A stretch of 12,996 bases of DNA from Candidatus Aenigmatarchaeota archaeon (lineage in GTDB: Archaea > Aenigmatarchaeota > Aenigmatarchaeia > QMZP01), in NCBI GenBank assembly GCA_039091855.1, contig JAWCLA010000020.1, forward strand, positions 1 to 12,996, given 5' to 3'. Of the stretch, positions 1 to 12,996 are shown piece after piece. A program made the position numbers and the translations under genes. Numbering within the stretch: position 1 is the first letter of the stretch; each line of letters starts with the position of its first letter. Below the pieces are notes generated by a model that ran no database searches, was not told the DNA's origin, and saw nothing but the letters and a program-made list of their open reading frames with translations.

Positions 1-1
1 A

Positions 2-1987
2 AAGAAAGTCGTCCTTGCGCCTGCCCAGAAGGGAGTTATTCTCCAAATGTCCCCAGACATTCTGAAAAAGAACCTCATTATGAGACCGCTGACAAAGAAG
101 GACATAGTAACCCCTTTCCCTGTTGTAAAGCAGAGAAGGGGCAGCCCGTTTGATGACCTGTTTGGGATGGACATAGAGGAGATATTTTTCGCTCCAATAC
201 CAGGAGAAACAAAGCTCGTTGTTGTTTCAACAAATCCCGAGGGAATAGTAAGGGTTACTGAAGACACAGAGGTTGAGCTCAGGCCAGAGGCGGTTGAGAT
301 AGAGGAAAAGGTCATACCAACAATAACCTACGAGGACATAGGAGGCTTGGGCGATGCCATAAACAAGATAAGGGAGATGGTCGAGCTTCCAATGAGGCAC
401 CCTGAGCTGTTCACGAAACTTGGTATAGAGCCACCAAAAGGCGTTTTGCTTTACGGGCCACCTGGAACGGGAAAGACACTGCTTGCGAAGGCTGTTGCAA
501 ACGAGTCCGGAGCAAATTTTTACTCTATAGCAGGACCTGAGGTTATGAGCAAGTGGTATGGTGAGTCCGAGGCAAACCTTCGCAAGATTTTCGAGGAAGC
601 GGAAAAGAACGCGCCTTCAATAATTTTCATAGACGAGATAGATGCCATCGCCCCGAAGAGGGAAGAGGTTACAGGGGAGGTTGAGAGAAGGGTTGTTTCA
701 CAGATTCTTACTTTAATGGATGGGTTGAAATCAAGGGGAAAGGTCATAGTAATTGCTGCCACAAACAGGCCTAACGCCATAGACCCCGCACTAAGGAGGC
801 CTGGAAGGTTTGACAGGGAGATAGAGATAGGGGTCCCTGACCAGAAGGGAAGGAAAGAGATTCTTCAAATACACACGAGAAACATGCCTATTGACCTCTC
901 CACTGTTGACCTTGACCATCTTGCCTCGATAACATATGGTTTTGTTGGGGCAGACCTTGAGGCTCTCTGCAAGGAAGCTGCAATGTCAGCCCTCAGGAGA
1001 AACCTTCCACAGATATCCTGGAAGACTATGGACGAGCTTCCACCAAAGGTGATAGAGAAGCTGAAAGTTACAAAGCAGGATTTTGACAACGCGTTGAAGA
1101 TTGTTGAGCCCTCTGCAATGAGGGAGGTTCTTGTTGAAGTTCCAAAGGTGAAGTGGGATGATGTGGGAGGATTGAAGGAGGTGAAGCAATCCCTCCAAGA
1201 AATAGTTGAGTGGCCGTTGAAACATCCGGAATCCTTCGAGAGAATAGGCATAAGGCCCCCAAAGGGAATTTTGCTTTATGGCCCGCCCGGCTCAGGAAAG
1301 ACGCTTCTTGCAAGGGCTGTTGCCACTGAATCTGGAGCGAATTTCATCTCAATAAAGGGACCCGAGGTCTTTTCAAAATGGGTTGGCGAGTCGGAGAAGC
1401 ACATAAGAGACATATTCAGGAGGGCAAGGCAGGTTGCACCTGCTGTGATATTCTTTGACGAGATAGACGCCCTTGCACCGCACAGGGGTCTTGAGGTTGG
1501 AACAAGGGTTTCTGAGAACGTTGTCTCGCAAATTCTTACTGAGATGTCAGGGCTTGAGGACATTCCTAATGTGGTGGTCATTGCTGCAACAAACAGGCCT
1601 GACATAATAGACCCCGCTCTTCTTAGACCTGGAAGGTTTGACAGGCAGGTTCTCGTTCCTGCTCCTGACGAGGAGGCAAGGCTTGAAATACTTAAGATAC
1701 ATACGAAAAAAATGCCTTTGAAGGGTGTTGATTTAAAGCACATAGCAAGGGAAACCGAAGGCTATTCAGGGGCAGACCTCGAGGCCTTGGTCAGGGAGGC
1801 GGGACTCAATGCACTGAGAAAGGACTTCAAGGCTAAGTATGTGACAAAGAAGGACTTTGAAGAGGCAATGAAAAAGGTAAAGCCCTCCGTGACCCCGGAG
1901 CTGGTTAAGTTCTACAACAAGATAGCGGAGAGGCTTAAGGCCCCGCCCACTGAAAAAGGAAAGGATAAGGTGGAATACGTAGGTTGA
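2..1987 (+). CDS. cdc48: Cdc48/VCP (p97/VAT) family double-ring AAA+ ATPase, 5'-truncated by the window edge
   Basis: Two AAA modules: Walker A GPPGTGKT and GPPGSGKT, Walker B IIFIDE and [27 protein letters not shown] twice. The frame is open from position 2 ([11 protein letters not shown]...), so the Met at 47 is internal to the N-domain. Confidence 0.97.
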
Positions 1988-2059
1988 TTGTAAAATAAAA
2001 CTGATGATATTTTGTTATATTTGATAGAATAAAGACACATAAAACCAATCTAATAAACG

Positions 2060-2943
2060 GGCTGTGTAGAAACCATCCGTAAAAGCCCATAATAACCTTC
2101 CTGTGCACGTTGCAAATAGCACACATCAAGACGACCTCATTGCATTGGTGAACCAATGACCTTGACTGAAGCCATGAGCCCATCAACCGTTTCCTCACGC
2201 TGTTAACAGTTTCTACCAACGATCTCTTGTGATATATGGTGTTATCAAAATGTCTTAGCATTTTCTTCCTGTACGAGCCGTATGTCTTGCCGTCTCTTCT
2301 CTTCCTTACCGGTATCATAGGTTTGCTGCCCAATTGCTTGACAAGGCGGTGGTTAGTCGCTGTAATGACCCTTATCAGCTGTTATGTATGCAGGTTTGGC
2401 AAGGCTGGCTGACTGCCTTGCCAGCCATTCAAAGTCTGTGTTGTCATTTCTTGGACCGAGCCTTGTTTTCACTGCCAGTATGGACTGGTTAACTGTGCAC
2501 ACGGCTAAGCTTGTCTTTATGTAGGTCTTCCTTTCCTGTTCCCCATGCATCCTTTGTGCATAGTATACGCTTGCATGGGTACTGGAGTAGCCGGTTGAGT
2601 CCATGGCGACTATGGTTTGCTCGCTATGAAAAAGGCAAACAGTTCGAACAAAAACAGCATAAATAACAGATGAATTGGAGCGAAGGAAGAATTTGTTAAC
2701 TGTTGTGAAGTGAGGTGGTTGGTGAATGCCAATTGCCTGCCTGAGTTCAGGCATCAGTTCAAGCAGCTCAATTATCCGTCTGTAATCTGTTTTTGTGTAT
2801 TTCATCAGGCACCATATAGCCGCTAATTGATACTGCTTATAGGTGTGCCTGGACTTCCTGCATGAATATGCTGGGAGAGAGCGGGAGAGAACCGAACATA
2901 AACGGACAGTTAGCTTTATTATCCGATTGACCTTATTATTCAT
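2060..2943 (-). pseudogene. IS5-family DDE transposase, split by a frameshift near 2355
   Basis: The N-part (2943-2353) has PHFTTV, AMDSTGY and ITADKG. The C-part continues in the +1 frame (NHRLVKQLGSKPMIPVRK...YHKRSLVETVNS..KR). The junction reads GAC-T-AAC, and the usual DKGYDS motif appears as DKGHYS. Confidence 0.88.
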
Positions 2944-3019
2944 AAGGCTCCCTCCTTATTGGTTTAAAATATATAATTAGTTAAGGCTGGGAGCCTGCTT
3001 ATATGTTTTCTACAGAGCC
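2060..3019 (-). mobile_element. IS5-family insertion sequence (~960 bp)
   Basis: Terminal inverted repeats GGCTGTGTAGAAA (2060-2072) and TTTCTACAGAGCC (3007-3019; reverse complement GGCTCTGTAGAAA, 12/13 match) enclose a DDE transposase. No clear target-site duplication. Confidence 0.9.
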
Positions 3020-3028
3020 AGAGAAACA

Positions 3029-3110
3029 GCCTGTAGAAACCATCCATAAAAGCCTATAACAATATTCCTAGTGTATTGTAAATTCCACACATCATCAACT
3101 CATTAAACTG
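3029..3110 (-). mobile_element. Degenerate remnant of the 3' end of a related IS5 copy
   Basis: tgtagaaaccatccataaaagcctataacaatattcc...cacacatca...ctcatt aligns with 2065-2145 (tgtagaaaccatccgtaaaagcccataataaccttcc...cacacatca...ctcatt) with substitutions and small indels. Weaker similarity may extend to about 3200. Confidence 0.8.
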
Positions 3111-3286
3111 TGGAATTTTTCAATAAATTGACTAGGAAGGGAGAGTTTCTAATTAATTCACCTCAACAATATTTCTTAGTATGTGGTTATAATGAAGATG
3201 GCTGAGGAACAGTCTCCTCAAGATGGGAATATATATTGGGAAATATAAATGTTTTAATTGATTCTTTATTTAAAATCAAAAACAGA

Positions 3287-3550
3287 TTACCTCTCAACTA
3301 TCTCAACCTTTGTTCCCATCGCTGTTCCAGGAAGCCCCTTTGGAAACCTTGCCCTTAACACCCCATTGTTGCCGTGGGTTTTTACTATCTTTCCGAAAAT
3401 CTTTTTCTTTGCAGGAGTGGTCCAAACCACCCTTTTGCCTATGTACCTGGCAGCGAGCTCCTTGGAATTAACTCCTTCTATCTCTATCAGGAGCTGGTTC
3501 CCGTGCATTGTGTGAGCTCCTCTCCTGTAGCTTATTATTGTTGCCTTCAT
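3287..3550 (-). CDS. rpl35ae: 50S ribosomal protein L35Ae
   Basis: 87 aa with SYRRG.H...NQ.LI, YIGKRVVW and GKI...HGN.GV.RARF..GLPG.A.G, the L35Ae signature. Confidence 0.96.
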   Translation of the reverse strand: MKATIISYRRGAHTMHGNQLLIEIEGVNSKELAARYIGKRVVWTTPAKKKIFGKIVKTHGNNGVLRARFPKGLPGTAMGTKVEIVER

Positions 3551-3625
3551 AGGTATGAGATTGTGCGCAAAGGTTTAAATATATTTTACAGGATGGTTGA
3601 TAAAGGATGCTAATTCAAAAGCATA

Positions 3626-4207
3626 TTAAGGCCTGAACATCCTTTTTCTTGGCATAACGTCAAGATTCGATTTAATCATAGCCTCCACGGGATGCGTTCC
3701 ACCTGCCACATCACATAAAAGTGAGATTGCCAGCTGGCTCCCAATTCTGCCTTTGGGTACAGCAACATTTTGATTTTTGCAGATTTCGTCCAATTGCTTT
3801 TGTTTTCTTTCAGGTCGGCCGTTAAAATTTATATCTTCCTGTTCAAGTATCCATTTCAGGCAGTATAAAATGTATTCAAGCGAATAACCAGGAAGGTTTT
3901 GTGTTTTTGCTGAATATTTGGAAAGCAGCTTTTCTATGGGTATATTATTCCATAATTCTATAATCGCATTAAAGACTTCTCTTGCTTGTTGTCTATTTGC
4001 ACATATTTTGCCATAAAGATCAATTGCAAAATGAGCGTGTTTTGGGGTTAAAAAATGCAAAGGATTTAGAGAGAAAACCGCTCTAACCTTAAAATCATTT
4101 GCAGACTTTCCGTCCTCTGTTTTTATGACGTACCATCCATTCGAGAGCCTCACAAAATCTATTATGCCTTTTCCTCTTAATTTTTCGCCTTTTTTAATTT
4201 CTACCAT
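3626..4207 (-). CDS. Hypothetical protein (about 193 aa), candidate nuclease or defence partner of the adjacent methyltransferase
   Basis: Long AT-rich ORF. The start was placed at ATG 4207 (MVEIKK...) because a TTTTAATA box lies about 21-28 nt upstream and the longer start overlaps the divergent promoter region. No family recognised. Confidence 0.7.
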   Translation of the reverse strand: MVEIKKGEKLRGKGIIDFVRLSNGWYVIKTEDGKSANDFKVRAVFSLNPLHFLTPKHAHFAIDLYGKICANRQQAREVFNAIIELWNNIPIEKLLSKYSAKTQNLPGYSLEYILYCLKWILEQEDINFNGRPERKQKQLDEICKNQNVAVPKGRIGSQLAISLLCDVAGGTHPVEAMIKSNLDVMPRKRMFRP

Positions 4208-4245
4208 AAAAATAAACTTAGAAAGAATATTAAAATGATTCATCA

Positions 4246-4271
4246 ATTAATAAATATTTATATTTATTAAT
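4246..4271. promoter_or_regulatory. Perfect palindromic operator overlapping the TATA box of the RHH-methyltransferase operon
   Basis: ATTAATAAATAT-tt-ATATTTATTAAT (12-bp arms, 2-nt spacer). TTTATATT at 4257-4264 lies about 20 nt before ATG 4285. Confidence 0.6.
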
Positions 4272-4284
4272 CAATAGAGATAGT

Positions 4285-4425
4285 ATGAGAAAAACAGTAA
4301 TAACGATAACTATTGACAGAGAAGTTTTGGAAAAGTTTAGAAGTATTTGTGAAAAAAATGACATAAAAATTTCAACCAAAATAAATACACTTATGAAGGA
4401 ATGGGTTTCTAAAAATGGAGAATAG
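4285..4425 (+). CDS. Ribbon-helix-helix (CopG/MetJ/Arc-type) DNA-binding protein, 46 aa; absent from the ORF track
   Basis: Manual translation MRKTVITITIDREVLEKFRSICEKNDIKISTKINTLMKEWVSKNGE: alternating beta strand, 'ID.EV...F' helix A, 'IS..IN.LM..W' helix B. Its stop is 2 nt before the methyltransferase ATG. Confidence 0.85.
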   Translation: MRKTVITITIDREVLEKFRSICEKNDIKISTKINTLMKEWVSKNGE

Positions 4426-4427
4426 AT

Positions 4428-5354
4428 ATGTCAAAATTAATCCCAATGCAGGAAATAACAAAGAGGGACTATTTAGAATTTATCAAAAACCATAATTCAG
4501 TTACAATCGAAGACGCAGTTTTGAATGTTGGTAAAAACTGGAAAATAAAATCCCTTCACCCCCAGGATTTTGAAATGGAAACCACTACAATTTGGAGTTT
4601 TCCAAAGAGGGGTGATTGGGCAACACACTACCTGAATGCTAAATACAGAGGAAACTGGGCTCCACAAGTTGCAAGAAACCTTATTTTGAGATATTCAAAA
4701 GACGGTGACACGGTTTTGGATCCTTTTGTGGGATCAGGAACCACTCTTATTGAATGCAAAATAACAGGCAGGAAGGGAATAGGAATTGACATAAATAAGG
4801 AAGCCCTTATAGTGACTTTGGACAGATTAAATATGCCATCACTTGACAAAAAAATGCTAGATAATTGTCAAAAGGTTTTCTTGGGCGATGCAAGAAATCT
4901 TAACGAAATTGGTAATGAAAGCATTGATTTTATTGCTACGCACCCGCCGTATGCAAGCATTATATCTTATACAAAAAACTCAAACCACAAGGAGGAAGGT
5001 GATCTTTCAAAGGTTCGCTCCATAGACGAGTTTGTAAAAGAGATGAAAAAGGTTGCTATTGAGTTATGGCGGGTATTAAAACCAGGAAAGTATTGTGCAA
5101 TTTTGATAGGTGATACGAGACGACACAAACACCAAGTTCCAATATCTTTCAGGGTTATGCAAACATTTCTTGATGTCGGTTTTGTTCTAAAAGAAAACAT
5201 AATCAAGGTACAACACAACACAAAAACTGCTCCGCTTTGGAAAAAAATGTCCTTAAAAAACAACTTTCTGCTTCTTGCGCATGAGCATTTATTCGTTTTC
5301 AGAAAGCCGGAAAAAGGAGAAAAGACGAAAATTTTTAGGGAAAGCATGAAGTGA
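4428..5354 (+). CDS. SAM-dependent amino-methyltransferase (N6A/N4C DNA methylase-like, TRM11-related fold)
   Basis: Motif I VLDPFVGSGTT, GIGIDIN, GDARNL, catalytic motif IV ATHPPY, RVLKPGKY, C-terminal HEHLFVFRKP. Confidence 0.88.
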   Translation: MSKLIPMQEITKRDYLEFIKNHNSVTIEDAVLNVGKNWKIKSLHPQDFEMETTTIWSFPKRGDWATHYLNAKYRGNWAPQVARNLILRYSKDGDTVLDPFVGSGTTLIECKITGRKGIGIDINKEALIVTLDRLNMPSLDKKMLDNCQKVFLGDARNLNEIGNESIDFIATHPPYASIISYTKNSNHKEEGDLSKVRSIDEFVKEMKKVAIELWRVLKPGKYCAILIGDTRRHKHQVPISFRVMQTFLDVGFVLKENIIKVQHNTKTAPLWKKMSLKNNFLLLAHEHLFVFRKPEKGEKTKIFRESMK

Positions 5355-5358
5355 TATT

Positions 5359-5682
5359 GTGGGAGGCGCACCTAATTATTCAAAAGGAAGGCAGATGATG
5401 AGGAAGATTTCAGAAGGCAGGGCAAAGGCGTTTGCACAAAACATAATAATAAAGGACGGTAAAGGCAGATATCCAGACTGCTTAAAGATTCTTCCTTACA
5501 ATTGGTGTCCAAACCAAAACGAAATTTCAAATGATTCAAAAAACCTGCCAGAAACCTGTAAAACATGCCAAGAGTTTCTTAAAAGCAGGTTTTATTTACA
5601 GCATTTTGCACAAAAAATCCATAAAGATATGCTCAAAAGGATAAGTGAGCAGGGATTGCCGACTTCAATAGAAATAAAATAG
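5359..5682 (+). CDS. Hypothetical protein with four cysteines (C-x8-C-x16-CxxC)
   Basis: 107-aa ORF with a GTG start 4 nt after the methyltransferase stop; fills the gap up to the PINA stop codon. Confidence 0.65.
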   Translation: MGGAPNYSKGRQMMRKISEGRAKAFAQNIIIKDGKGRYPDCLKILPYNWCPNQNEISNDSKNLPETCKTCQEFLKSRFYLQHFAQKIHKDMLKRISEQGLPTSIEIK

Positions 5683-5683
5683 T

Positions 5684-7495
5684 TTACCCTTTCCCGTAAA
5701 TCTTCAGCCGTCCTGAAGATATTGCCTGCAACACAGTTTTACCGAGGGAGGACTTCTTTTTAACCCTTATCCTTCCCTTTTTTCCCACTATTGCGGAGAA
5801 TATAAAATCATTCCCGCTGTAAACGTCAACCTGCTCGCCTGTCAGGGAGGAATTAACCTTAAGGTCAAAGTGGTTCCCTGTCTCCTCAAAGCCGAAGGGT
5901 ATGGACTGCTTAAGGGTTTTTTCCTTAGGCTCGACAGAGATGTGAAGCCCCAGCTTCTTTTCAAGGGACTCTATGTTTTTGCCCTTTTTTCCTATAAGCT
6001 TTGATATTACCTCGTTTTTTACCCTCACAACTACCCTGTCCTCAGACTCAAACTCAACCTCAGGGTTTGAATCCCAGTTCCTGAGCTCCTGAAGTATCCT
6101 CGCCTTTGCCAGGTCTTTTAGTGGCGATTTTTCGTGCTGCTTCGTGACAGGGATTATGACATTTTCCTCTCCGTAGGTGTAAATCTCGTATTCGAGCCTC
6201 TTTGTCTCGTAATCCCTGACCTCGACAACAGGCCTTGCCAAGTCCGCTTCCTTCATGCCTGTCGGGACTTTTACCTTCATCCCTATCTCGAATGTCTTTA
6301 GGATTTTTCCTCCCGAGATGTAAATCACCGTGTCTATCACGTGGGGAATTGTCCCCAGCTCGAGCCTGCCTATGAACCTTTGTATAGCGCTGACAGGGTT
6401 GGTTGCGTGGACAACCCCTATCATACCTACGCCCGCAAGCCTCATGTCAGCAAAAACCTTGAAGTCCTTTGTCCTCCTGACCTCATCAAATATTGTGTAA
6501 TCAGGCCTAACGAGAAGGAGTATCTCTGCTGTTTTCTCCCAGTCCCCCTCAAGCGGTGCGTACTGCGTAACCTCCGGCCCAACCTGAAGGTCCCTTGGCT
6601 GCTCAAAGGTTTTCACAACCTTTCCCTTTGCCGAAAGGAAGTCGGCAATGGAGGCGGCAAATGTTGACTTTCCTGAGCCTGGCGGTCCTGCTATGAGAAT
6701 CCCGTACGAGCCTTTGAGGATTTTTTCCTCAAGCTCCTTGTGCAAATTGTAGTCAGAAAGCGTGAGCTTTGCAACGGGCCTTACCGCCGTGAGCTCAAGC
6801 CTGTCTGAAAAAGGAGGCCTTGTTATAGCTATCCTGTAGTTTCCGAGCTGTATGACCATTGCCCCGTGCTTTCCCATTTCTATGAAGCCGTCCTCATCAA
6901 CCCTTACCTTTGACTCTATCTGTTCTATTATCTTCTTCAGTTCTGACTCTTCCATTGGGGTTTCGCTGAGGAAGTGCATCCTTACTTCCCCTGGTTTTCC
7001 CTTTTTGGCATAAGGTATAACTCCTGCCTTTAAATGGATAGATTGCGTGTCAGGGGTGAAGAATTTCTCAATAATCAGCTTCTCCTTACTTACATCATAC
7101 TTCACGTGCTCTATCGGGACTCCCTCCGCCTCGCCAACAAGCGCCTGAACGTAATCGGCAGTAACAAGTGTTGCATTGTGCTTTGCGGCAACATCCCTTA
7201 TTATGGCGTCTATCCTTCCCTTCTTTGCAAGCTGTATCTCCTCAAGCGTGGGCCTTTTTCCCGTGAACTCAACCTTTACGTTGTGCTCCTTTCCTGCCTC
7301 TCTTATCTTCTTTATTTCTTCCAGTCCCTGGAATCCTATCTCCTTCCCCCTTGATGCCTGGGCCTGCAGCTCATCCACCACAGCCCTTGGTATCAGTATA
7401 GTGACGTTTTTTATCTTTCCTGACTTTATTAGGGCAGAAAGCTCCCCGTGTATCAGTATGCTCGTGTCAGGAACGAGTGTTTTTGACTTTTCCAT
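5684..7495 (-). CDS. PINA-type PIN-domain / P-loop ATPase / KH-domain protein (archaeal Holliday-junction branch-migration ATPase family)
   Basis: N-terminal PIN domain (VPDTS, ELQAQA, IDAIIRD, LVTAD), Walker A GPPGSGKST, LLVRPDYTIFDEVR, DMRLAGVGMIGVVHA, C-terminal KH loop LIGKKG. Confidence 0.93.
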   Translation of the reverse strand: MEKSKTLVPDTSILIHGELSALIKSGKIKNVTILIPRAVVDELQAQASRGKEIGFQGLEEIKKIREAGKEHNVKVEFTGKRPTLEEIQLAKKGRIDAIIRDVAAKHNATLVTADYVQALVGEAEGVPIEHVKYDVSKEKLIIEKFFTPDTQSIHLKAGVIPYAKKGKPGEVRMHFLSETPMEESELKKIIEQIESKVRVDEDGFIEMGKHGAMVIQLGNYRIAITRPPFSDRLELTAVRPVAKLTLSDYNLHKELEEKILKGSYGILIAGPPGSGKSTFAASIADFLSAKGKVVKTFEQPRDLQVGPEVTQYAPLEGDWEKTAEILLLVRPDYTIFDEVRRTKDFKVFADMRLAGVGMIGVVHATNPVSAIQRFIGRLELGTIPHVIDTVIYISGGKILKTFEIGMKVKVPTGMKEADLARPVVEVRDYETKRLEYEIYTYGEENVIIPVTKQHEKSPLKDLAKARILQELRNWDSNPEVEFESEDRVVVRVKNEVISKLIGKKGKNIESLEKKLGLHISVEPKEKTLKQSIPFGFEETGNHFDLKVNSSLTGEQVDVYSGNDFIFSAIVGKKGRIRVKKKSSLGKTVLQAISSGRLKIYGKG

Positions 7496-7751
7496 AATTT
7501 TCTCCTTATTTGCAATATCTTCACTGAACGTGAGATATATTAAATTTTTTCAATAGATGACCCACATCACTAAAACAATAAGCTGCTAATGATATGGGCA
7601 ACTCATCATTCAATTAGAACTAGTTTGCTGGCTCAAACTTTGTTCCTTTATGAATTGTTTTATAACTATTTAAATACTTTATCGTTATATTTATAAGTCC
7701 CTTTTTAAAGCTTTGGGTTATCTTTATAAGGGAAAGGCGCTTGCCTTTTCG

Positions 7752-7760
7752 AAAGGAGGT
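7752..7760 (+). promoter_or_regulatory. Shine-Dalgarno site of tbp
   Basis: AAAGGAGGT, 6 nt before ATG 7767. Confidence 0.8.
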
Positions 7761-7766
7761 TTGAAT

Positions 7767-8333
7767 ATGCCTGCGGAATTTCAGGTTAAAGTTGAGAATG
7801 TGGTTGCTTTTACTTCGCTGGGAAAGGACATACCTTTGAACAAGCTCATAAACAAGATAGAAAACGCTGAATACGAGCCCGAGCAGTTTCCCGGGCTTGT
7901 TTACAGGACAAACGATCCAAGGGCTGCTGCCCTCATATTCTCATCAGGGAAGATAGTGTGCACAGGTGCAAAAAGCATAGACATGGCGAAGGTTGCAATG
8001 AAAAAGGTCGTTGACAGGGTCAGGCAAACAGGTATAAACCTTCCCACCAAGTTCAACGTTCAGGTGGAAAACATAGTCGCTTCGTCAAAAATCAAGGCAA
8101 ACCTCAACCTTGAGGAGATAGCCTTTTCGCTTGAGAATGCAGAATACGAGCCCGAGCAGTTTCCCGGGCTTGTTTACAGGATAAACGACCCGAGAGTCGC
8201 TTTCCTGCTTTTCAGCTCCGGGAAGATAATATGCACAGGAGCGCACAACATCGATGACATACACAGCGCGCTCAACAAGCTGAAGAAGAGATTGGAGGAA
8301 ATAGGGATAAAGGTCACACCATTGAAGGACTAA
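7767..8333 (+). CDS. tbp: TATA-box-binding protein
   Basis: Two TBP repeats (ENVVA/ENIVA...YEPEQFPGLVYR..DPR...L.FSSGKI.CTGA). Start moved from TTG 7713 to ATG 7767 because of the SD site. Confidence 0.98.
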   Translation: MPAEFQVKVENVVAFTSLGKDIPLNKLINKIENAEYEPEQFPGLVYRTNDPRAAALIFSSGKIVCTGAKSIDMAKVAMKKVVDRVRQTGINLPTKFNVQVENIVASSKIKANLNLEEIAFSLENAEYEPEQFPGLVYRINDPRVAFLLFSSGKIICTGAHNIDDIHSALNKLKKRLEEIGIKVTPLKD

Positions 8334-8348
8334 TTTCTTAGAACAAAG

Positions 8349-8534
8349 CTATTTCCTTCTGTCTCCCTGAACGGTCTTCCACTGCCAGGCATACTTGCGG
8401 ATTTTTGCTGATTTTCCGAAGCCGCACGCTGAGCAAAACTTTTTTGTCACGTTATAGCTTCTCCTTCCGCATCTCCTGCAAACTATGTGGACTTTTTTCT
8501 GCCTCTTCCCGAAACTGGGAGTTCCCTTTGTCAT
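8349..8534 (-). CDS. rpl37e: 50S ribosomal protein L37e
   Basis: [11 protein letters not shown]...[12 protein letters not shown]....KFCSACGFG zinc ribbon; GAGGT SD upstream. Confidence 0.97.
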
Positions 8535-8578
8535 AAACTACCTCTTTATACAGCACAAGTTGAACTGGTTTTAACCAA

Positions 8579-8794
8579 TCATTTTCCCGGAGAGATGTAG
8601 ACTATGTTGTCTCCCCTGACAAGGACCTTTCCGAGGGTTATTTCGTTTTCTCCCTGTATCTTTGCATCCTCGAGCCATATGTTTATGTGTGAGTCAAACG
8701 CCTTCAGGACACCCACTATGTCCTCTCCCTTTTTTGTCCTTATCAGGATTCTCTTCTCCAGGGAACTTCCAAGAACATCCAAAGGTCTCTGCAT
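8579..8794 (-). CDS. Sm-like archaeal protein (SmAP/Lsm)
   Basis: RPLDVL, G.LKAFD.H.N..LEDA (Sm1) and VLVRGDNIVYISP (Sm2). Lies directly upstream of rpl37e, the conserved archaeal pairing. Start taken at ATG 8794 (MQRPLD). Confidence 0.95.
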   Translation of the reverse strand: MQRPLDVLGSSLEKRILIRTKKGEDIVGVLKAFDSHINIWLEDAKIQGENEITLGKVLVRGDNIVYISPGK

Positions 8795-8866
8795 TAACCT
8801 AACACCCCAATCAATCAAAAATATTAGTTTATTCCCACAGGTATTTAAATACGCAAAACGGATTTT

Positions 8867-8882
8867 GCAAAAACTATATAAA
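8867..8882 (+). promoter_or_regulatory. Putative BRE/TATA promoter for rps8e (divergent from the lsm promoter at about 8842-8850)
   Basis: GCAAAAAC-TATATAAA on the + strand; TTTAAATA on the - strand at about 8842-8849. Confidence 0.5.
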
Positions 8883-8922
8883 GGATTGCTGTATTAGTAG
8901 AATAAGTACCAGATTGCAAAGC

Positions 8923-9105
8923 GAATTGTCACAAGGCGAAGGTTAAGTGGAAGTTCCGAAGGAACTTCTCCGTCAAGTCGGAAAGGTAAACAATAATAAT
9001 GTGAATTGTCACAAGGCGAAGGTTAAGTGGAAGTTCCGAAGGAACTTCTCCGTCAAGTCGGAAAGGTAAACAATAATAATGTGAATTGTCACAAGGCGAA
9101 GGTTA
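8923..9105. repeat. Exact tandem repeat: two 80-bp units plus a 23-bp partial third unit
   Basis: Units start at 8923, 9003 and 9083 (GAATTGTCACAAGGCGAAGGTTA...). The units are identical, each full unit contains the hairpin GAAGTTCC-GAA-GGAACTTC, and the last base is the A of the rps8e ATG. Confidence 0.97.
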
Positions 9106-9503
9106 TGGTAAGATGGCACTTACGCTCGAACAGGACACCTACCGGGGCATTGGTAAAGAGGAGCAGCAAGAAAAAAAGGTTTCAAAGAGGCTCTGAGTTT
9201 CTGGAGACTAAAATAGGCAAAAAAAGGACAAAAACAAAGCGATGTAGGGGTGGAAACCAAAAAACCAAGCTTCTTTCTATTGATTTTGCAAATGTTGCTG
9301 ACCCAAAGACAGGAAGAATGCAAAAGGCAAAGATAATCTCTGTCCAGGAAAATCCTGCAAACCCGCACTACATAAGAAGGAACATCATAACAAAGGGCGC
9401 TGTGATTAAAACTGATATGGGTCTGGCAAAGGTTACATCAAGGCCAGGACAGCACGGGACTGTTAATGCAGTTCTTATAGAAGAAAAGAAAGCCTCAAAG
9501 TGA
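9105..9503 (+). CDS. rps8e: 30S ribosomal protein S8e
   Basis: RS.R.PTG, R.RGGN.K.KL, ANV.DP.TG, ENPANPHY.RRNIITKGAVI.T..G.A.VTSRPGQ.G.VNAVL. The true start is ATG 9105; the longer ORF is read-through of the repeat. Confidence 0.97.
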   Translation: MVRWHLRSNRTPTGALVKRSSKKKRFQRGSEFLETKIGKKRTKTKRCRGGNQKTKLLSIDFANVADPKTGRMQKAKIISVQENPANPHYIRRNIITKGAVIKTDMGLAKVTSRPGQHGTVNAVLIEEKKASK

Positions 9504-9511
9504 CTTTTGGG

Positions 9512-10633
9512 CTAAAACATTTCCCTCATCCTTTCAAAGAAACCCTTGCCTGTTTCCGCCTTTCTCTCTCCCAAAAATTCCCTTATCAAATGCTCTTGTT
9601 TTCTGGAAAGCCTTTTGGGTATCTCAACAACAACCTTTACAAGCTGGTCGCCTCTCTTTCCTGATTTTATGTGAGGCATTCCCTGTCCCTTCAGGCGAAA
9701 GACGGTATGGCTCTGGGTTCCTGGTGGTATTTTAAGTCTTGCCGTTCCTGTTAAGGTTGGTATTGTTATCTCCCCGCCTAAGATTGCAGTTCCTATGTCT
9801 ATGGTTGTCTTGCAGAAAATGTCATTGCCGTGCCTCTCAAAAACAGGATGCTCCTTTACCCTGATTTCTATGTAAAGGTCGCCTGACGGTCCTCCTTTAT
9901 AACCGGGCTGTCCCTGTCCTGCAAGCCTGAGGTATTGACCATCATCCACTCCTGCTGGTATTTTTACCCTCACCTTTCTTGTTTTCCTTTCCTTTCCCGT
10001 GCCGTTGCAGTTTTTACACGGGACCTCTATTATCGTTCCTTCGCCTTCACACCTGTCGCAAGGAGATATGCTGATTGACTGCATAAACGCTGTTCTTTTA
10101 ACTGTCCTTATCTCCCCTGTGCCACCGCATTTCGGGCATTTTTTTGGATATGTTCCTGGCTTCGCCCCGCTTCCACTGCATACAGAGCATTGCTCAAATC
10201 TCGGAACTTCTATTTCTGTGTCCGCTCCACGGAATGCATCTTCCAGACTTATTTCAAGCTCGTATCTCAGGTCAGCACCCTCCTCCTGCTCATATCCGCT
10301 TCTTCCCCTCTCTCCAAAGCCAGAAAAAACATCAAATATGTCGCCAAAGCCAAAATTTTTGAACAGCTCGTCAAAGCTGAATGTCCTGAAGCCCGCAAAA
10401 TCCTCCGGCCTGAAGGCGGCATGGCCGAACTGGTCATATTGCGCCCTTTTTTCAGGATCACTCAAAACCTGGAATGCCTCGTTTATCTCCTTGAACCTCT
10501 CCTCTGCCTCCTTGTTCCCTGGGTTTACATCGGGATGCCACTTTCTAGCAAGATGCCTGAACGCCCTCTTTATCTCTTCCTGCGAGGCATTCCTGCTCAC
10601 GCCGAGTATCTCATAATAGTCCTTTTTTGTCAT
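9512..10633 (-). CDS. dnaJ: Chaperone DnaJ (class A Hsp40)
   Basis: J-domain DYYEILGV...WHPD, G/F region, four CxxCxGxG repeats, C-terminal IPAGVDDG and GDLY; GGAGG SD upstream. Confidence 0.97.
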
Positions 10634-10843
10634 ACATCCTCCGGATAATAATTTGATAATATGTCAGAAATATTTTTCGGGTATTTAAATCAAGCCTGTC
10701 TTTGCTTCTTTCCTGCCTCAAAAATCCTTTGCCACAAAAATGTATGCCTTTCCCGTATGGAATTGGTATTTCCGATTCTGTTAACTTATATAAGTATTAA
10801 CAATATAGGGTAATTAATCTTCTACTTAAAAGAGCTCTAAAGC

Positions 10844-11653
10844 CTAAAGCAGATTTGCAAGTTTCTTTATGTCTTTATTTGCGACGTGAGTGTAGATCTG
10901 CGTAGTCTTCAAATCTTTATGGCCTAATAACTGCTGAATGTATCGAATATCAGCACCAGATTCTAATAGATGGGTCGCAAAGCTGTGCCTTAGCGTATGT
11001 GGTGTCACATTCTTTTTGATTCCTGCTTTATTATGAGCGGATTTTACGATTTGCTGAATTGTCCGCTTGTTGTATTTTCTCTCTCTTTGAGAAATAAATA
11101 TTGAACCTTTTTCCTTAGTTCCGAAAATCCTCAAAGTTTCTATTAATCTTTTATGAAGAAATACGACCCTTTCTTTATCTCCTTTCGCCGTTTTTAGATG
11201 TATTATCTCTCTGTCAAAATCAATGTCGTCCCATTTAAGATTTCTTACTTCATCCAGACGAAGCCCTGCATAATAAAGAAACATAATAACAAGCTTGTGC
11301 TTCAAATTGTTTGTAGCTTCTATCATCTTGTTTATTTCTTCTTTGCTCAAAACTAAAGGCAGTTTCAACGACTTTCTCGCGAGGGGAAGTTTTTCCTCAA
11401 ATCGTGTATTTAGTACGTTTTCATAAAAGAACTTCAGAGCAAAGTATGCAGACCTCATTGTTGATTTGCTTTTAGTTGTGTAGGATAACAGAAATTCTCT
11501 TGGTGTTTTGCCTGAAGACAGAAATTCTTTAACTATGAAAATATATGATTTGCCTGTTTGATAGGAATATCTTCTGAGTTTTATTTCCTCAATCAGCTTG
11601 CCAATAAGTTTATACTTTTCTTCTGGAGAATAGATTTTACTATTATCTGCCAT
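10844..11653 (-). CDS. Tyrosine recombinase, integron-integrase/Xer-like but without the IntI-specific insertion
   Basis: Intact catalytic set: GLR (R), KG.K (K), HTLRH (H-x-x-R), LLGH (H), IYTH (Y). The N-terminal LRRYSYQT..SY and KLPLVLS resemble integron integrases. Only 269 aa. Confidence 0.93.
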   Translation of the reverse strand: MADNSKIYSPEEKYKLIGKLIEEIKLRRYSYQTGKSYIFIVKEFLSSGKTPREFLLSYTTKSKSTMRSAYFALKFFYENVLNTRFEEKLPLARKSLKLPLVLSKEEINKMIEATNNLKHKLVIMFLYYAGLRLDEVRNLKWDDIDFDREIIHLKTAKGDKERVVFLHKRLIETLRIFGTKEKGSIFISQRERKYNKRTIQQIVKSAHNKAGIKKNVTPHTLRHSFATHLLESGADIRYIQQLLGHKDLKTTQIYTHVANKDIKKLANLL

Positions 11654-11683
11654 ACATTTTATTATGGAAACTAACTTTATAAA

Positions 11684-11750
11684 ATCTCGCTTTTTATACT
11701 CATATATACTATAAAACGAATATTTATCTCGCTTAATAGTTGTTCAACGC
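11684..11750 (+). other. Putative attI-like primary recombination site with crossover G|TT at 11742/11743
   Basis: Lies just upstream of the divergent recombinase. GTTCAAC core at 11742-11748; direct repeats ATCTCGCTT at 11684-11692 and 11726-11734. Confidence 0.55.
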
Positions 11751-11774
11751 AATGCTCACTACGGGGCTCCAAAA

Positions 11775-11788
11775 GAAAAATTTAAATA
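11775..11788 (+). promoter_or_regulatory. BRE/TATA promoter of the HNH gene (probably leaderless)
   Basis: GAAAAA-TTTAAATA ending 23 nt before ATG 11812. Confidence 0.6.
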
Positions 11789-11811
11789 CAAACTAGTAAT
11801 AATGAATTATT

Positions 11812-12216
11812 ATGCCAAGAAATCCATTTGCGATTGATATAAAACCTGTTGATATTTGGGGAACTTCAAAAAAATCTAAAAAGAGGAAAAATATTTCTTT
11901 TACAGAAAAAGCAATTTTATGGGAAAAAAATAAATCACACATTTGTCATATCTGCAGACAGAAAATACATTCTTTAACTGAAGCAGAAGTTGACCATATA
12001 AGAGCACATTCTAAAGGTGGTCAGACTGTGAGTTGGGCACACCGTGCGTGTAATAGATTAAAAGGTAAAAAATCGCTTTCTGAAATTCATAGAAGATTAG
12101 GAATTAAAACTAAGTCTAAGAAAAGAAAATCTACTAGAAAGAAATCAAAAGGGAATTATTGGGTTAATCCTATAACAGGTAGAAAAGAAAAGGTCCAACC
12201 TTTATTTCGACTTTAA
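11812..12216 (+). CDS. HNH endonuclease with a basic C-terminal tail
   Basis: CHIC, EVDHI...SKGG and AHRACNRLKG; zinc-binding HNH pattern. Confidence 0.9.
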   Translation: MPRNPFAIDIKPVDIWGTSKKSKKRKNISFTEKAILWEKNKSHICHICRQKIHSLTEAEVDHIRAHSKGGQTVSWAHRACNRLKGKKSLSEIHRRLGIKTKSKKRKSTRKKSKGNYWVNPITGRKEKVQPLFRL

Positions 12217-12220
12217 ACAA

Positions 12221-12352
12221 CTAAAACTCGATTCGTGTCCTTCTTTTAGGTCTTCTTCTTGCTTTGAAACTAACTCTTTGACCACTACTTGTTCTAAAGG
12301 ACACAGGTCTCTTAGTTTTAGTTTTCTTTCTTCTTGCTAAAAACGATGGCAT
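12221..12352 (-). CDS. Small, highly basic 43-aa protein; absent from the ORF track
   Basis: Manual translation MPSFLARRKKTKTKRPVSFRTSSGQRVSFKARRRPKRRTRIEF (17 of 43 residues K/R, one acidic). It fills the gap between the HNH stop and the hairpin region and is preceded on the - strand by GCAAAA-TTTTTATA about 22 nt upstream. Confidence 0.65.
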   Translation of the reverse strand: MPSFLARRKKTKTKRPVSFRTSSGQRVSFKARRRPKRRTRIEF

Positions 12353-12457
12353 AATAATCAATAGAAACTTATTCTATAAAAATTTTGCGGAGCCCCTCCG
12401 TTCGCACTTCTTCGTCGCTTCGCTCCTCGACCACATTGCATTCTCACTTCGTTCGGG

Positions 12458-12547
12458 GCGTTGAACAGGCATTTTACGGCTCACTTCGTTGCACTCGTTC
12501 GCCAAAATTTCCCTGCGGGAAACTTCGTAAAATGCCATATGTTCATT
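12458..12547 (+). other. attC-like hairpin recombination site
   Basis: TGAACA (12462-12467) pairs with TGTTCA (12540-12545). GGCATTTTACG (12468-12478) pairs perfectly with CGTAAAATGCC (12526-12536), leaving a 3-nt ATA bulge. Inner hairpin TTTCCC-TGC-GGGAAA (12508-12522). The AAC...GTT triplets are conserved as in attC R''/R'. Confidence 0.7.
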
Positions 12548-12627
12548 TCAATCGCTCGGGCGCCTACGGTTCACGCTTCAAAATCAATTTAAACATTTGT
12601 TAAACATAAAATAAATTATCTGATTTA

Positions 12628-12996
12628 TTATGATTGTAGAATGCTTCTAAACTGAGATGAATTTTCCCATTCTGGAATTGTTATAAGATATCTACTAACA
12701 AAATGTTTTAATGCTTTTCTTCGGGTTCCAGCAGACGTTAATGTAGATTTCTCCCACAAATCTCTTCCAGAACTATCTTTTTCGATTAAGAAATCTTTAA
12801 GATTGGGAAATATTTTTTTGAAATTATCTTTTGTAAGTGGAAGATTCCTATATTCAAATTCTTTTTTGATATATGGTAATAATTCAATAAATATAGATAA
12901 CCCATAGTGACTTTTTATGAGAGAAGTTTTGTATTTTTTAGTTGGCCAAAGGTTACCAGAACATTCTTGAATTGCAGCTAAAAAATCATTAAGAAC
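12628..12996 (-). CDS. 3' part of a gene whose start is outside the window (cassette 2 cargo), possibly a DGQHR/DndB-like protein
   Basis: Open frame of 122 codons: VLNDFLAAIQECSGNLWPTKKYKTSLIKSHYGLSIFIELLPYI...RSILQS*. The 'N.F.AI....W....SLI...GL..FI.LL' pattern recalls DGQHR-domain C-termini. The ORF is solid; the family call is weak. Confidence 0.6.
   Translation of the reverse strand, partial: VLNDFLAAIQECSGNLWPTKKYKTSLIKSHYGLSIFIELLPYIKKEFEYRNLPLTKDNFKKIFPNLKDFLIEKDSSGRDLWEKSTLTSAGTRRKALKHFVSRYLITIPEWENSSQFRSILQS

Follow-up and report, generated by a model that had tools for sequence, protein, structure and literature searches.

A probable integron-type cassette platform headed by a XerA-like recombinase in an aenigmatarchaeal genome

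The locus at the contig end

Contig JAWCLA010000020.1 of the Candidatus Aenigmatarchaeota archaeon assembly GCA_039091855.1 (0.69 Mb, 84% complete) was analysed over its entire length of 12,996 nt, referred to as the window in the following. Its right-hand part (10844–12996) carries int, the gene of a tyrosine recombinase (Int), which is transcribed away from a putative docking site resembling the attI site of integrons; beyond this site follow one complete gene cassette, which ends in a folded site resembling an integron attC, and a second cassette. A first-pass annotation of the sequence had read an intact recombinase, a GTT core, cargo genes and a bulged AAC...GTT hairpin as parts of a non-canonical, integron-like system of gene capture. 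All these features were found in their places, every peptide quoted occurs in the 269-aa protein, and the reading as such is supported by related genomes, by a rule that governs the cassette junctions, and by the linkage of the folded sites to int. The order in 10844–12996 is int, a 158-nt spacer, an open reading frame (ORF) for an HNH-domain protein, a doubtful 46-aa ORF, a GC-rich 190-nt block (12385–12575) and an open-ended ORF:

10844–11653, minus strand: int, coding for a 269-aa tyrosine recombinase of the Xer/IntI "simple" type that lacks the IntI-specific insertion
11677–11696: TATA-like box TTTATAAAAT.TCGCTTT, 24–43 nt upstream of the int start, kept in 6 of 7 aligned Int-clade loci
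11730–11753, plus strand: attI-like site, composed of a left arm CGCTTAATAG-T, the invariant TGTT (11741–11744), the cassette-specific hexamer CAACGC, and AAT
11745–12543, plus strand: cassette 1, complete, about 0.8 kb
11812–12216, plus strand: cargo of cassette 1, 134-aa HNH-domain protein (Pfam HNH 21.7 bits, cut-off 21.4; HNH_5 23.0 bits, cut-off 27.5)
12221–12361, minus strand: 46-aa Lys/Arg-rich ORF, doubtful gene, no family match
12385–12457, plus strand: GC-rich 5' module of the attC-like site, with small hairpins and a block conserved with the elements of other genomes
12450–12562, plus strand: core attC-like folded site (covariance model 102 bits, E 2.8e-20)
12458–12543, parts of this site in order: R'' GCGTTGAACA (12458–12467), stem (12468–12478), two inner hairpins linked by CCAAA, complementary stem' (12526–12536), ATA bulge (12537–12539) and TGTT (12540–12543), followed by the hexamer CATTTC of the next cassette and AAT
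12544–12996, plus strand: cassette 2, cut by the contig end
12628–12996, minus strand: open-ended ORF of cassette 2, at least 122 aa, no family match

The TGTT core of the attI-like site lies 88 nt upstream of the int start codon, and the TATA-like box probably marks the int promoter region. GC content falls from 0.45–0.48 in the preceding dnaJ gene to 0.28–0.38 from about position 10750 on, with the hairpin region as a local peak. The hairpin extends from AAC (12464–12466) to GTT (12541–12543) and comprises an 11-bp stem and the 3-nt ATA bulge. Taken alone, the segment 12370–12600 gave folding z-scores of -1.45 (DNA) and -2.08 (RNA), which are not decisive, and a relaxed scan for AAC...GTT hairpins returned many 8/9 chance matches and was unusable; it is only because of the comparison with relatives that the hairpin of the window exceeds chance. 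Partial DNA matches to the GC-rich element occur in 20 of the 91 genomes of the order. Searching the window's own assembly by blastn with this element and with the regions upstream and downstream of int did not return a second copy.

Int, a recombinase without the IntI-specific insertion

Int matches Pfam Phage_integrase with an E value of 2.5e-45 and carries KGDKERVVFLHKRLIETLRIFGTKEKGSIFISQRERKY at residues 157–194; the catalytic residues R132, K160, H219, R222, H245 and Y254 are all in place. With the NCBIfam model of integron integrases, TIGR02249, it scored 196.1 bits (cut-off 265), the match being split into two pieces, and with the XerA model NF040815 it reached 212.2 bits (210.8 in a six-frame search), narrowly missing the cut-off of 220. 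Among solved structures, the best match by sequence was XerA 5hxy (1.2e-42), followed by the Pyrococcus Xer protein 4a8e and by VchIntIA 2a3v. The alignment with 2a3v breaks between query 174/target 177 and query 190/target 238, skipping target residues 178–237, and a MAFFT alignment including IntI1, XerC, XerD and archaeal relatives revealed about 44 extra residues of IntI1, in two blocks, which are absent in Int, XerA, XerC and XerD. In an AlphaFold model of Int (mean predicted local distance difference test score 80.3), the segment from the lysine beta-hairpin to the HxxR helix consists of a short helix and short strands only and includes no extra helix; Foldseek, queried with this model, placed XerA 5hxy (E 3e-15) slightly ahead of VchIntIA 2a3v (E 3e-14). 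Based on these alignments, the structural model and the catalytic residues, the IntI insertion, and with it the additional domain specific to IntI proteins, is truly absent from Int, as the first-pass annotation had stated, and Int looks active. The further claim that standard IntI models may miss such a system holds for the NCBIfam model.

The closeness to XerA suggests an alternative in which Int would be the XerA of the cell, the attI-like site the chromosomal dif site, and the cassettes elements stacked at dif in the manner of integrative mobile elements exploiting Xer (IMEX). In bacteria, elements stack at dif via the host Xer proteins. This view is in keeping with the NF040815 score (212 vs 220 bits) and with 5hxy and 4a8e being the closest solved relatives, and also with the window's own assembly, 84% complete, in which Int is the best XerA candidate. 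However, three of the five Int-bearing genomes examined encode a separate XerA above the family cut-off, including a complete Pacearchaeota genome in which XerA scored 243 bits and Int 210, and in which these two were the only matches at E ≤1e-10. In a tree of 37 rows, support for a single Int clade is 100/100; the clade has a long stem (1.04 substitutions per site), and phylum labels are mixed on its very short inner branches. Int thus forms a clade apart from housekeeping XerA, as the integron-like reading had presupposed. With one IntI among its rows, the tree does not place the Int clade nearer to either IntI or XerA.

The distribution of Int is patchy. Homologues with 64–86% identity were found at full length in 5 of 40 related genomes and as fragments in three more, covering four families; a protein with 86% identity occurs in another family, and four genomes of the same genus show no more than 45%. 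Database relatives with 72–90% identity bear several phylum labels, which are mixed at 80–90% identity, and are named only "tyrosine-type recombinase/integrase" or "XerD". The site adjoining Int is always 50–100 nt away from the gene, in differing chromosomal contexts, and the cassettes do not contain a recombinase of their own. A second XerA, the patchiness and a clade of its own do not describe a vertically inherited, single housekeeping resolvase (a dif site was not searched for). On this evidence, Int is not the housekeeping XerA, and we regard stacking at dif as an improbable explanation of the locus.

Folded elements, cassette junctions and cargo

A covariance model of the folded element was built from eight cleanly aligned copies and used, at a threshold of E ≤0.01, to search the 91 genomes of the order. 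It found matches in 43 of them, typically several per contig on one strand. As the window contig ends at 12996, further sites of this kind, which the first-pass annotation had expected one or two genes apart, were sought in relatives, and they were indeed present there. The arrays comprise at least nine sites on one strand in contig C9 of genome G081, where they follow a 73%-identical Int and continue to the contig end, four each in G081:C8 and G056:C53, and three to four in G015:C17. In G015, int is followed by small low-GC genes, each with a GC-rich element behind it, and two partial DNA matches lie 2–3 kb upstream of the Int homologue, which also adjoins dnaJ. This locus (L026, 8386–17405) places int and its 3–4 cassettes between dnaJ and dnaK/grpE, genes which usually form one cluster; a search of the assembly of the window returned no dnaK.

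The elements share a common plan: AACA, a variable stem of 10–11 bp, two inner hairpins joined by CCAAA, the complementary stem, a bulge of 2–3 nt, TGTT, six variable bases, and AAT. RNAalifold predicted 16 base pairs from the eight copies, seven of them compensatory. In 45 copies aligned to the covariance model, 11 of the 16 pairs had changed on both sides, and 92.1% of the cells were paired, as compared to 76.2% in shuffled alignments (none of 500 as high) and 35–47% in slid ones; the fitting of this alignment to the model favours structure. GTT was conserved in 37 of 37 sites and AAC in 36, the full motifs GTTRRRY and RYYYAAC in 12 sites each. The relatives of the window thus contain arrays of attC-like sites with conserved structure and AAC/GTT cores. 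The covarying stems argue for intrastrand pairing, i.e., for a site which would act in its folded form. A G-T pair at the inner end of the stem, which would be a mismatch on the other strand, is retained in 35 of the 45 copies, a weak hint that the strand shown may be the folding strand. The model also located two solitary attC-like elements in the window's own genome (G000), both on the minus strand and with no int near (G000:C36:25976-26090 and G000:C33:18322-18423). The exact left-boundary 10-mers expected for these two elements were not found on the C36 and C33 contigs.

Linkage of the elements to int was examined with the same threshold in 80 Int-clade loci from named genomes, which are labelled Pacearchaeota, Woesearchaeota, Aenigmatarchaeota, Iainarchaeum, Diapherotrites, Micrarchaeota, Thermoplasmatota/DHVE2 and Methanobacteriota and include one complete Pacearchaeota chromosome. 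In 188 kb of sequence upstream of int and 623 kb downstream, all 42 matches were located upstream of int and on the opposite strand, and at least one match was present in 23 of the 42 loci having ≥700 nt of upstream sequence. In 36 of the 80 loci, less than 400 nt separate the int start from the contig end on its upstream side, a pattern that a hypervariable array leaves in metagenome assemblies. The usual divergent layout is reversed in L079 (G012:C10, 3918–9600) and L080 (G026:C190, 2092–4217): the attC-like elements there share the strand of a class-2 Int-like gene and are located downstream of it, which may be an inverted arrangement or an unrelated neighbour.

The strict linkage bears on the possibility that the arrays are ordinary clusters of attC sites lacking integron-integrases (CALINs), served in trans by a canonical IntI and located beside a Xer-like gene by coincidence. 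The AAC/GTT cores, the layout and the cargo are indeed integron-like, full GTTRRRY and RYYYAAC motifs do occur (12 of 37 sites each), and archaeal CALINs without a nearby IntI are described in the relevant part of a published survey (PMC9668308). However, none of the 91 genomes of the order contains a protein reaching the TIGR02249 cut-off; among the matches listed, each covers one side of model positions ~180–236 and none the segment between. In the window's own assembly only two tyrosine recombinases were detected, and the complete Pacearchaeota genome offers XerA and Int only at E ≤1e-10. Since, in addition, the sites are invariably upstream of and divergent from int, next to which the attI-like site is conserved, service in trans by a canonical IntI appears very improbable.

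The motif (A/T)AATAG(T/G)TGTT was present 50–100 nt upstream of int in 51 of the 65 loci with at least 110 nt of upstream sequence, of which seven were also aligned; the hexamer following TGTT varies from locus to locus and is again followed by AAT. An attI-like site thus adjoins the recombinase gene, and cassettes are joined to it at the GTT core. In a contig from another metagenome (run X3), the match to int and attI ends exactly at 11744, the last T of TGTT, and continues into unrelated sequence shaped like the head of another cassette. Together with the differing hexamers, this supports the earlier expectation that gene content varies at a fixed junction. Some junction hexamers recur with identical following bases at the attI-like sites of different genomes, one in L097, L104 and L127, another in L083 and L092, and a third in L096, L133 and L146; different hosts would accordingly share a first cassette. 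In a contig of run X2, the HNH cassette is located behind a different left flank; the match begins inside the conserved attI arm and therefore does not prove relocation of the cassette.

Recombination in integrons takes place on the folded bottom strand of attC. A cassette that is being inserted is cut at G|TT, so that the bases past a junction belong to the next cassette and pair with its inverse core. In the window, TGTT and the hexamer CAACGC (TGTTCAACGC, 11741–11750) are the exact reverse complement of GCGTTGAACA (12458–12467) in the attC-like site of cassette 1 itself; R'' thus complements the cassette's own 5' boundary core and not the 3' end. The hexamer after TGTT was compared with the hexamer before AACA of the next element for the 38 elements in the fetched loci, which form 23 consecutive pairs. 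All six bases were complementary in 12 pairs and five of six in two more, whereas full complementarity was seen in 2.0% of 1274 pairs whose members came from different loci, and in 1 of 38 cases when the two ends of one element in an array were compared. At the attI-like site, 10 of 10 positions agreed in the window, in G015 and in G011, and 9 of 10 in G081. Complementarity of this kind is the hallmark of cassettes in integrons. A second class of integrase, represented by a protein of a genome of the same genus (G003) with 43% identity to Int (L075, G003:C28, 7300–9106), has an attI of different sequence with a 12–13-bp hairpin of its own and one cassette, coding for a 206-aa protein, which also obeys the rule at 10 of 10 positions.

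Many cassettes moreover have a private outer inverted repeat. Comparing the first 60 nt with the start of the GC-rich module in 13 cassettes gave exact complementary stretches of, at their longest, 17, 16, 15, 14, 14, 12, 11, 9, 8, 8, 7, 6 and 6 nt; the average among mismatched controls was 6.8 and the highest value 12, and five of the 13 cassettes exceeded every control. In the window, GGAGCCCC (12389–12396) is complementary to GGGGCTCC (11763–11770) at the cassette head, but these 8 nt are within the range of the mismatched controls, 25% of which reached at least 8.

The 134-aa cargo protein of cassette 1 matches HNH endonuclease families of PHROG, down to E 1.4e-6. The gene and the other cassette proteins of the window were absent from both the other fetched loci and the rest of the assembly when these were searched. 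A contig of run X4 skips positions 12216–12318, and this segment therefore varies between populations. Within 12091–12334, the HNH gene has a Lys-rich 3' end that forms an inverted repeat with 12308–12334 (21–24 nt, 75–81% complementary). The G081 array carries genes for a DUF4365 protein, a GNAT acetyltransferase, a NUDIX hydrolase, a GmrSD/Schlafen nuclease, a type IIG restriction-modification enzyme, a DUF2085 membrane protein and a shikimate-kinase-like protein, and the G015 array codes for a PQ-loop protein, a cupin and a toxin-like DUF4258 protein. This cargo, small membrane proteins included, is typical of integron cassettes. As to the stock of defence genes that had been surmised, three of the six cassette proteins of the G081 array that were compared with PADLOC match its models, one of them weakly and the type IIG enzyme and the GmrSD-like nuclease firmly, whereas neither cassette protein of the window does; from the cargo survey, defence genes are therefore present, but not dominant.

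The remainder of the window (1–10633) contains the housekeeping genes for CDC48, L35Ae, TBP, L37e, an Sm protein, S8e and DnaJ, as identified from the ORF list and Pfam, and because of these genes the contig is chromosomal and archaeal. That Int is the integrase of a single plasmid or provirus, and the hairpin a terminator or replication feature, would fit the low-GC block which begins at int, and the position of int at the block's edge beside dnaJ. Yet a scan found no tRNA gene in the window, so that Int is not a tRNA-targeting integrase, and a repeat finder detected only repeats at chance level within 10600–12996 and no direct-repeat att sites. The corresponding blocks of relatives are modular, with a folded site for every one or two genes and complementary junctions, and their cassettes are free of phage or plasmid backbone genes, which leaves little to recommend a single element of this kind. 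That the GC-rich elements are structured repeats (repetitive extragenic palindromes or miniature inverted-repeat transposable elements) or small RNA genes without a role in recombination is the least credible explanation, since, although covariation and the G-T pair retained in 35 of 45 copies would also suit an RNA and solitary copies occur elsewhere in the genome, Rfam gave no family match for the window at E ≤1, and neither the junction rule nor the strict linkage to int is expected of dispersed repeats or RNA genes.

A second block of low GC content (0.28–0.38) is located between the genes of L35Ae and a PIN/KH ATPase (3626–5682). It comprises an unknown 206-aa ORF on the minus strand, a 46-aa ORF, an N4/N6 DNA methyltransferase gene (4428–5354) and a 107-aa ORF, and may be an islet of an orphan methylase or of a restriction-modification system; the attC-like model found no match in it. 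Beside CDC48, two neighbouring minus-strand ORFs of 132 and 196 aa (1935–2943) were noted. The latter has a DDE_Tnp_1 match restricted to profile positions 2–87 of 200 and is probably a broken insertion sequence transposase.

Proposed mechanism and relation to known systems

We consider the right-hand part of the window, with a probability of roughly 85%, to be the head of an integron-type cassette platform which is served by a XerA paralogue and resides on the chromosome of a DPANN-like archaeon with a small genome. The anatomy of the locus, the covariation of the stems, the junction rule, the link to int in position and orientation, the variable cassettes at a fixed junction, and the lack of a canonical IntI are the observations that carry this reading. 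In the proposed mechanism, Int, a dedicated XerA paralogue encoded back to back with attI (...AATAGT-TGTT), would be the catalyst. Circular cassettes, each consisting of one or two genes and a folded attC-like site of ~115–200 nt, would enter at the TGTT core and accumulate as a same-strand array pointing away from int. Each cassette would bring complementary boxes (six bases and AACA; TGTT and six bases), which are split on insertion, and therefore the six bases past each junction would complement the six before AACA of the next downstream site. By analogy with integrons and with the Xer-dependent integration of folded single-stranded phage DNA, Int might bind the folded site at its stem-bulge-stem, which would imitate a duplex core site, cut within or beside GTT, and exchange strands with attI, resulting in insertion, or with another attC-like site, resulting in excision. 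The substrate would be folded DNA, either single-stranded or cruciform; the strand used, the position of the cut within GTT and the mode of cassette expression we likewise infer.

A number of findings weigh against this interpretation. The window itself contains a single complete cassette and a single folded site, and the case therefore rests on relatives. Among these, 9 of the 23 consecutive pairs match at no more than four of six positions, including two with gaps of 5.5 and 7.9 kb, within which sites may have been missed, explaining some of the low-scoring pairs. Where at least 700 nt upstream of int were available, 19 of 42 Int loci, e.g. G029:C2, have no model match, possibly due to the limited sensitivity of a covariance model drawn from one order. 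The Int protein of G015 is devoid of 12 residues in the MAFFT alignment, including the catalytic-lysine hairpin, and may be inactive although an array follows its gene, so that arrays can persist after, or exist without, a local active Int. Int is just 8 bits below the XerA cut-off (212 vs 220), and the backbone of the tree, which connects the Int clade, XerA, the second class and IntI1, is unresolved, with one IntI included and unsettled bootstrap values. The comparison covered assembled contigs, and among those from four metagenome runs, whose uncovered parts are uninformative, a junction of 11744 with 12544, which excision of cassette 1 would create, does not occur. With a single exception the genomes are metagenome bins, so that chimeric contigs and mis-binning are possible; to counter the latter concern, the window contig also bears the genes of TBP, ribosomal proteins and DnaJ.

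The extra domain of IntI is held to be what allows a tyrosine recombinase to handle folded attC sites. A wider interpretation, to which we give somewhat less than even odds, is that the loci described here represent a large, horizontally spreading integron-like lineage in Archaea (DPANN phyla, Thermoplasmatota and a Methanobacteriota bin), whose XerA-paralogous integrase would recombine folded attC-like DNA without the IntI domain; such a lineage might explain many IntI-less archaeal CALINs and might reflect either an independent invention or an ancestral insertion-less state. The sections of Ghaly et al. (2022; PMC9668308) considered here report archaeal integrons in 75 metagenome-assembled genomes, with 539 attC sites and six IntIs, all of which have the IntI-specific domain; most arrays are CALINs, and Nanoarchaeota are among the hosts. 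The CALINs of that survey may already include some of the present arrays. Smyshlyaev et al. (2021; PMC8138268), in the portion relevant to this group, call the insertion "not fully conserved" in an integron-like subgroup, and the corresponding part of a review of archaeal tyrosine recombinases (PMC8371274) mentions integrons in general terms only. Full-text searches of the literature and a term search of a 2026 preprint on complete Nanobdellota genomes did not retrieve a description of an insertion-less Xer-type integrase heading cassette arrays.

If the wider interpretation is true, a common Xer-type recombinase would be the missing enzyme for the archaeal arrays (539 attC sites but six IntIs in the part of PMC9668308 referred to above), and the integron principle would not depend on the IntI domain. 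A 269-aa protein with defined sites would then be tractable for studying how structure-specific recombination evolved from dimer resolution. Genes annotated as "XerD-like" in small archaeal genomes may mark hypervariable gene-capture loci which break metagenome assemblies, as at the 36 of 80 Int contigs that end close to int.

Several known systems share single traits with the locus. The pdif modules of Acinetobacter plasmids resemble the present cassettes in that they comprise few genes, have Xer-type sites as boundaries and are regarded as mobile through Xer recombination. However, pdif sites are short duplex XerC/D sites of alternating orientation on plasmids, and they are not known to have a folded attC-like site, an attI or an adjoining dedicated recombinase. 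With the archaeal XerA/dif system (NF040815; 5hxy, 4a8e), Int has in common the architecture, the length, the best matches in sequence and fold, and the lack of an accessory domain. In contrast to XerA, Int remains below the family cut-off, forms a separate clade, is patchy and horizontally spread, and coexists with a true XerA, and it is coupled to cassette arrays rather than to a lone dif site, which is a sequence of 28 bp.

A folded substrate of a Xer-type recombinase has a precedent in the IMEX group, as the CTX phage has a folded, single-stranded attP which is recombined by XerCD. As is proposed for Int, a recombinase without the IntI insertion acts there on a folded hairpin mimicking a duplex site, and tandem stacking is possible. 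IMEX are phages or plasmids, however, and use the housekeeping Xer at dif, whereas the locus described here has a dedicated paralogue, an attI of its own, and minimal gene cassettes.

The closest parallel is provided by integrons. They differ from the present locus in their integrase, Int having no IntI insertion and scoring below the IntI cut-off (196 vs 265 bits), and in their sites, the boxes of which measure 10 bp here (six bases and AACA). The site found here is also larger; it forms a three-way junction and has, besides the conserved linker CCAAA, a 5' module rich in GC. Many cassettes have the private outer inverted repeat, and cassette genes occur on either strand. Common to both are a recombinase gene divergent from an adjoining attI, same-strand arrays of cassettes with one or two genes, low GC content, and cargo such as acetyltransferases, restriction-modification systems and toxin-like genes. 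In both, the inverse core of a cassette matches the junction at its 5' end, in keeping with a crossover at or near G|TT, and each cassette ends in an imperfect palindrome with AAC...GTT cores, whose structure is kept while the sequence varies.

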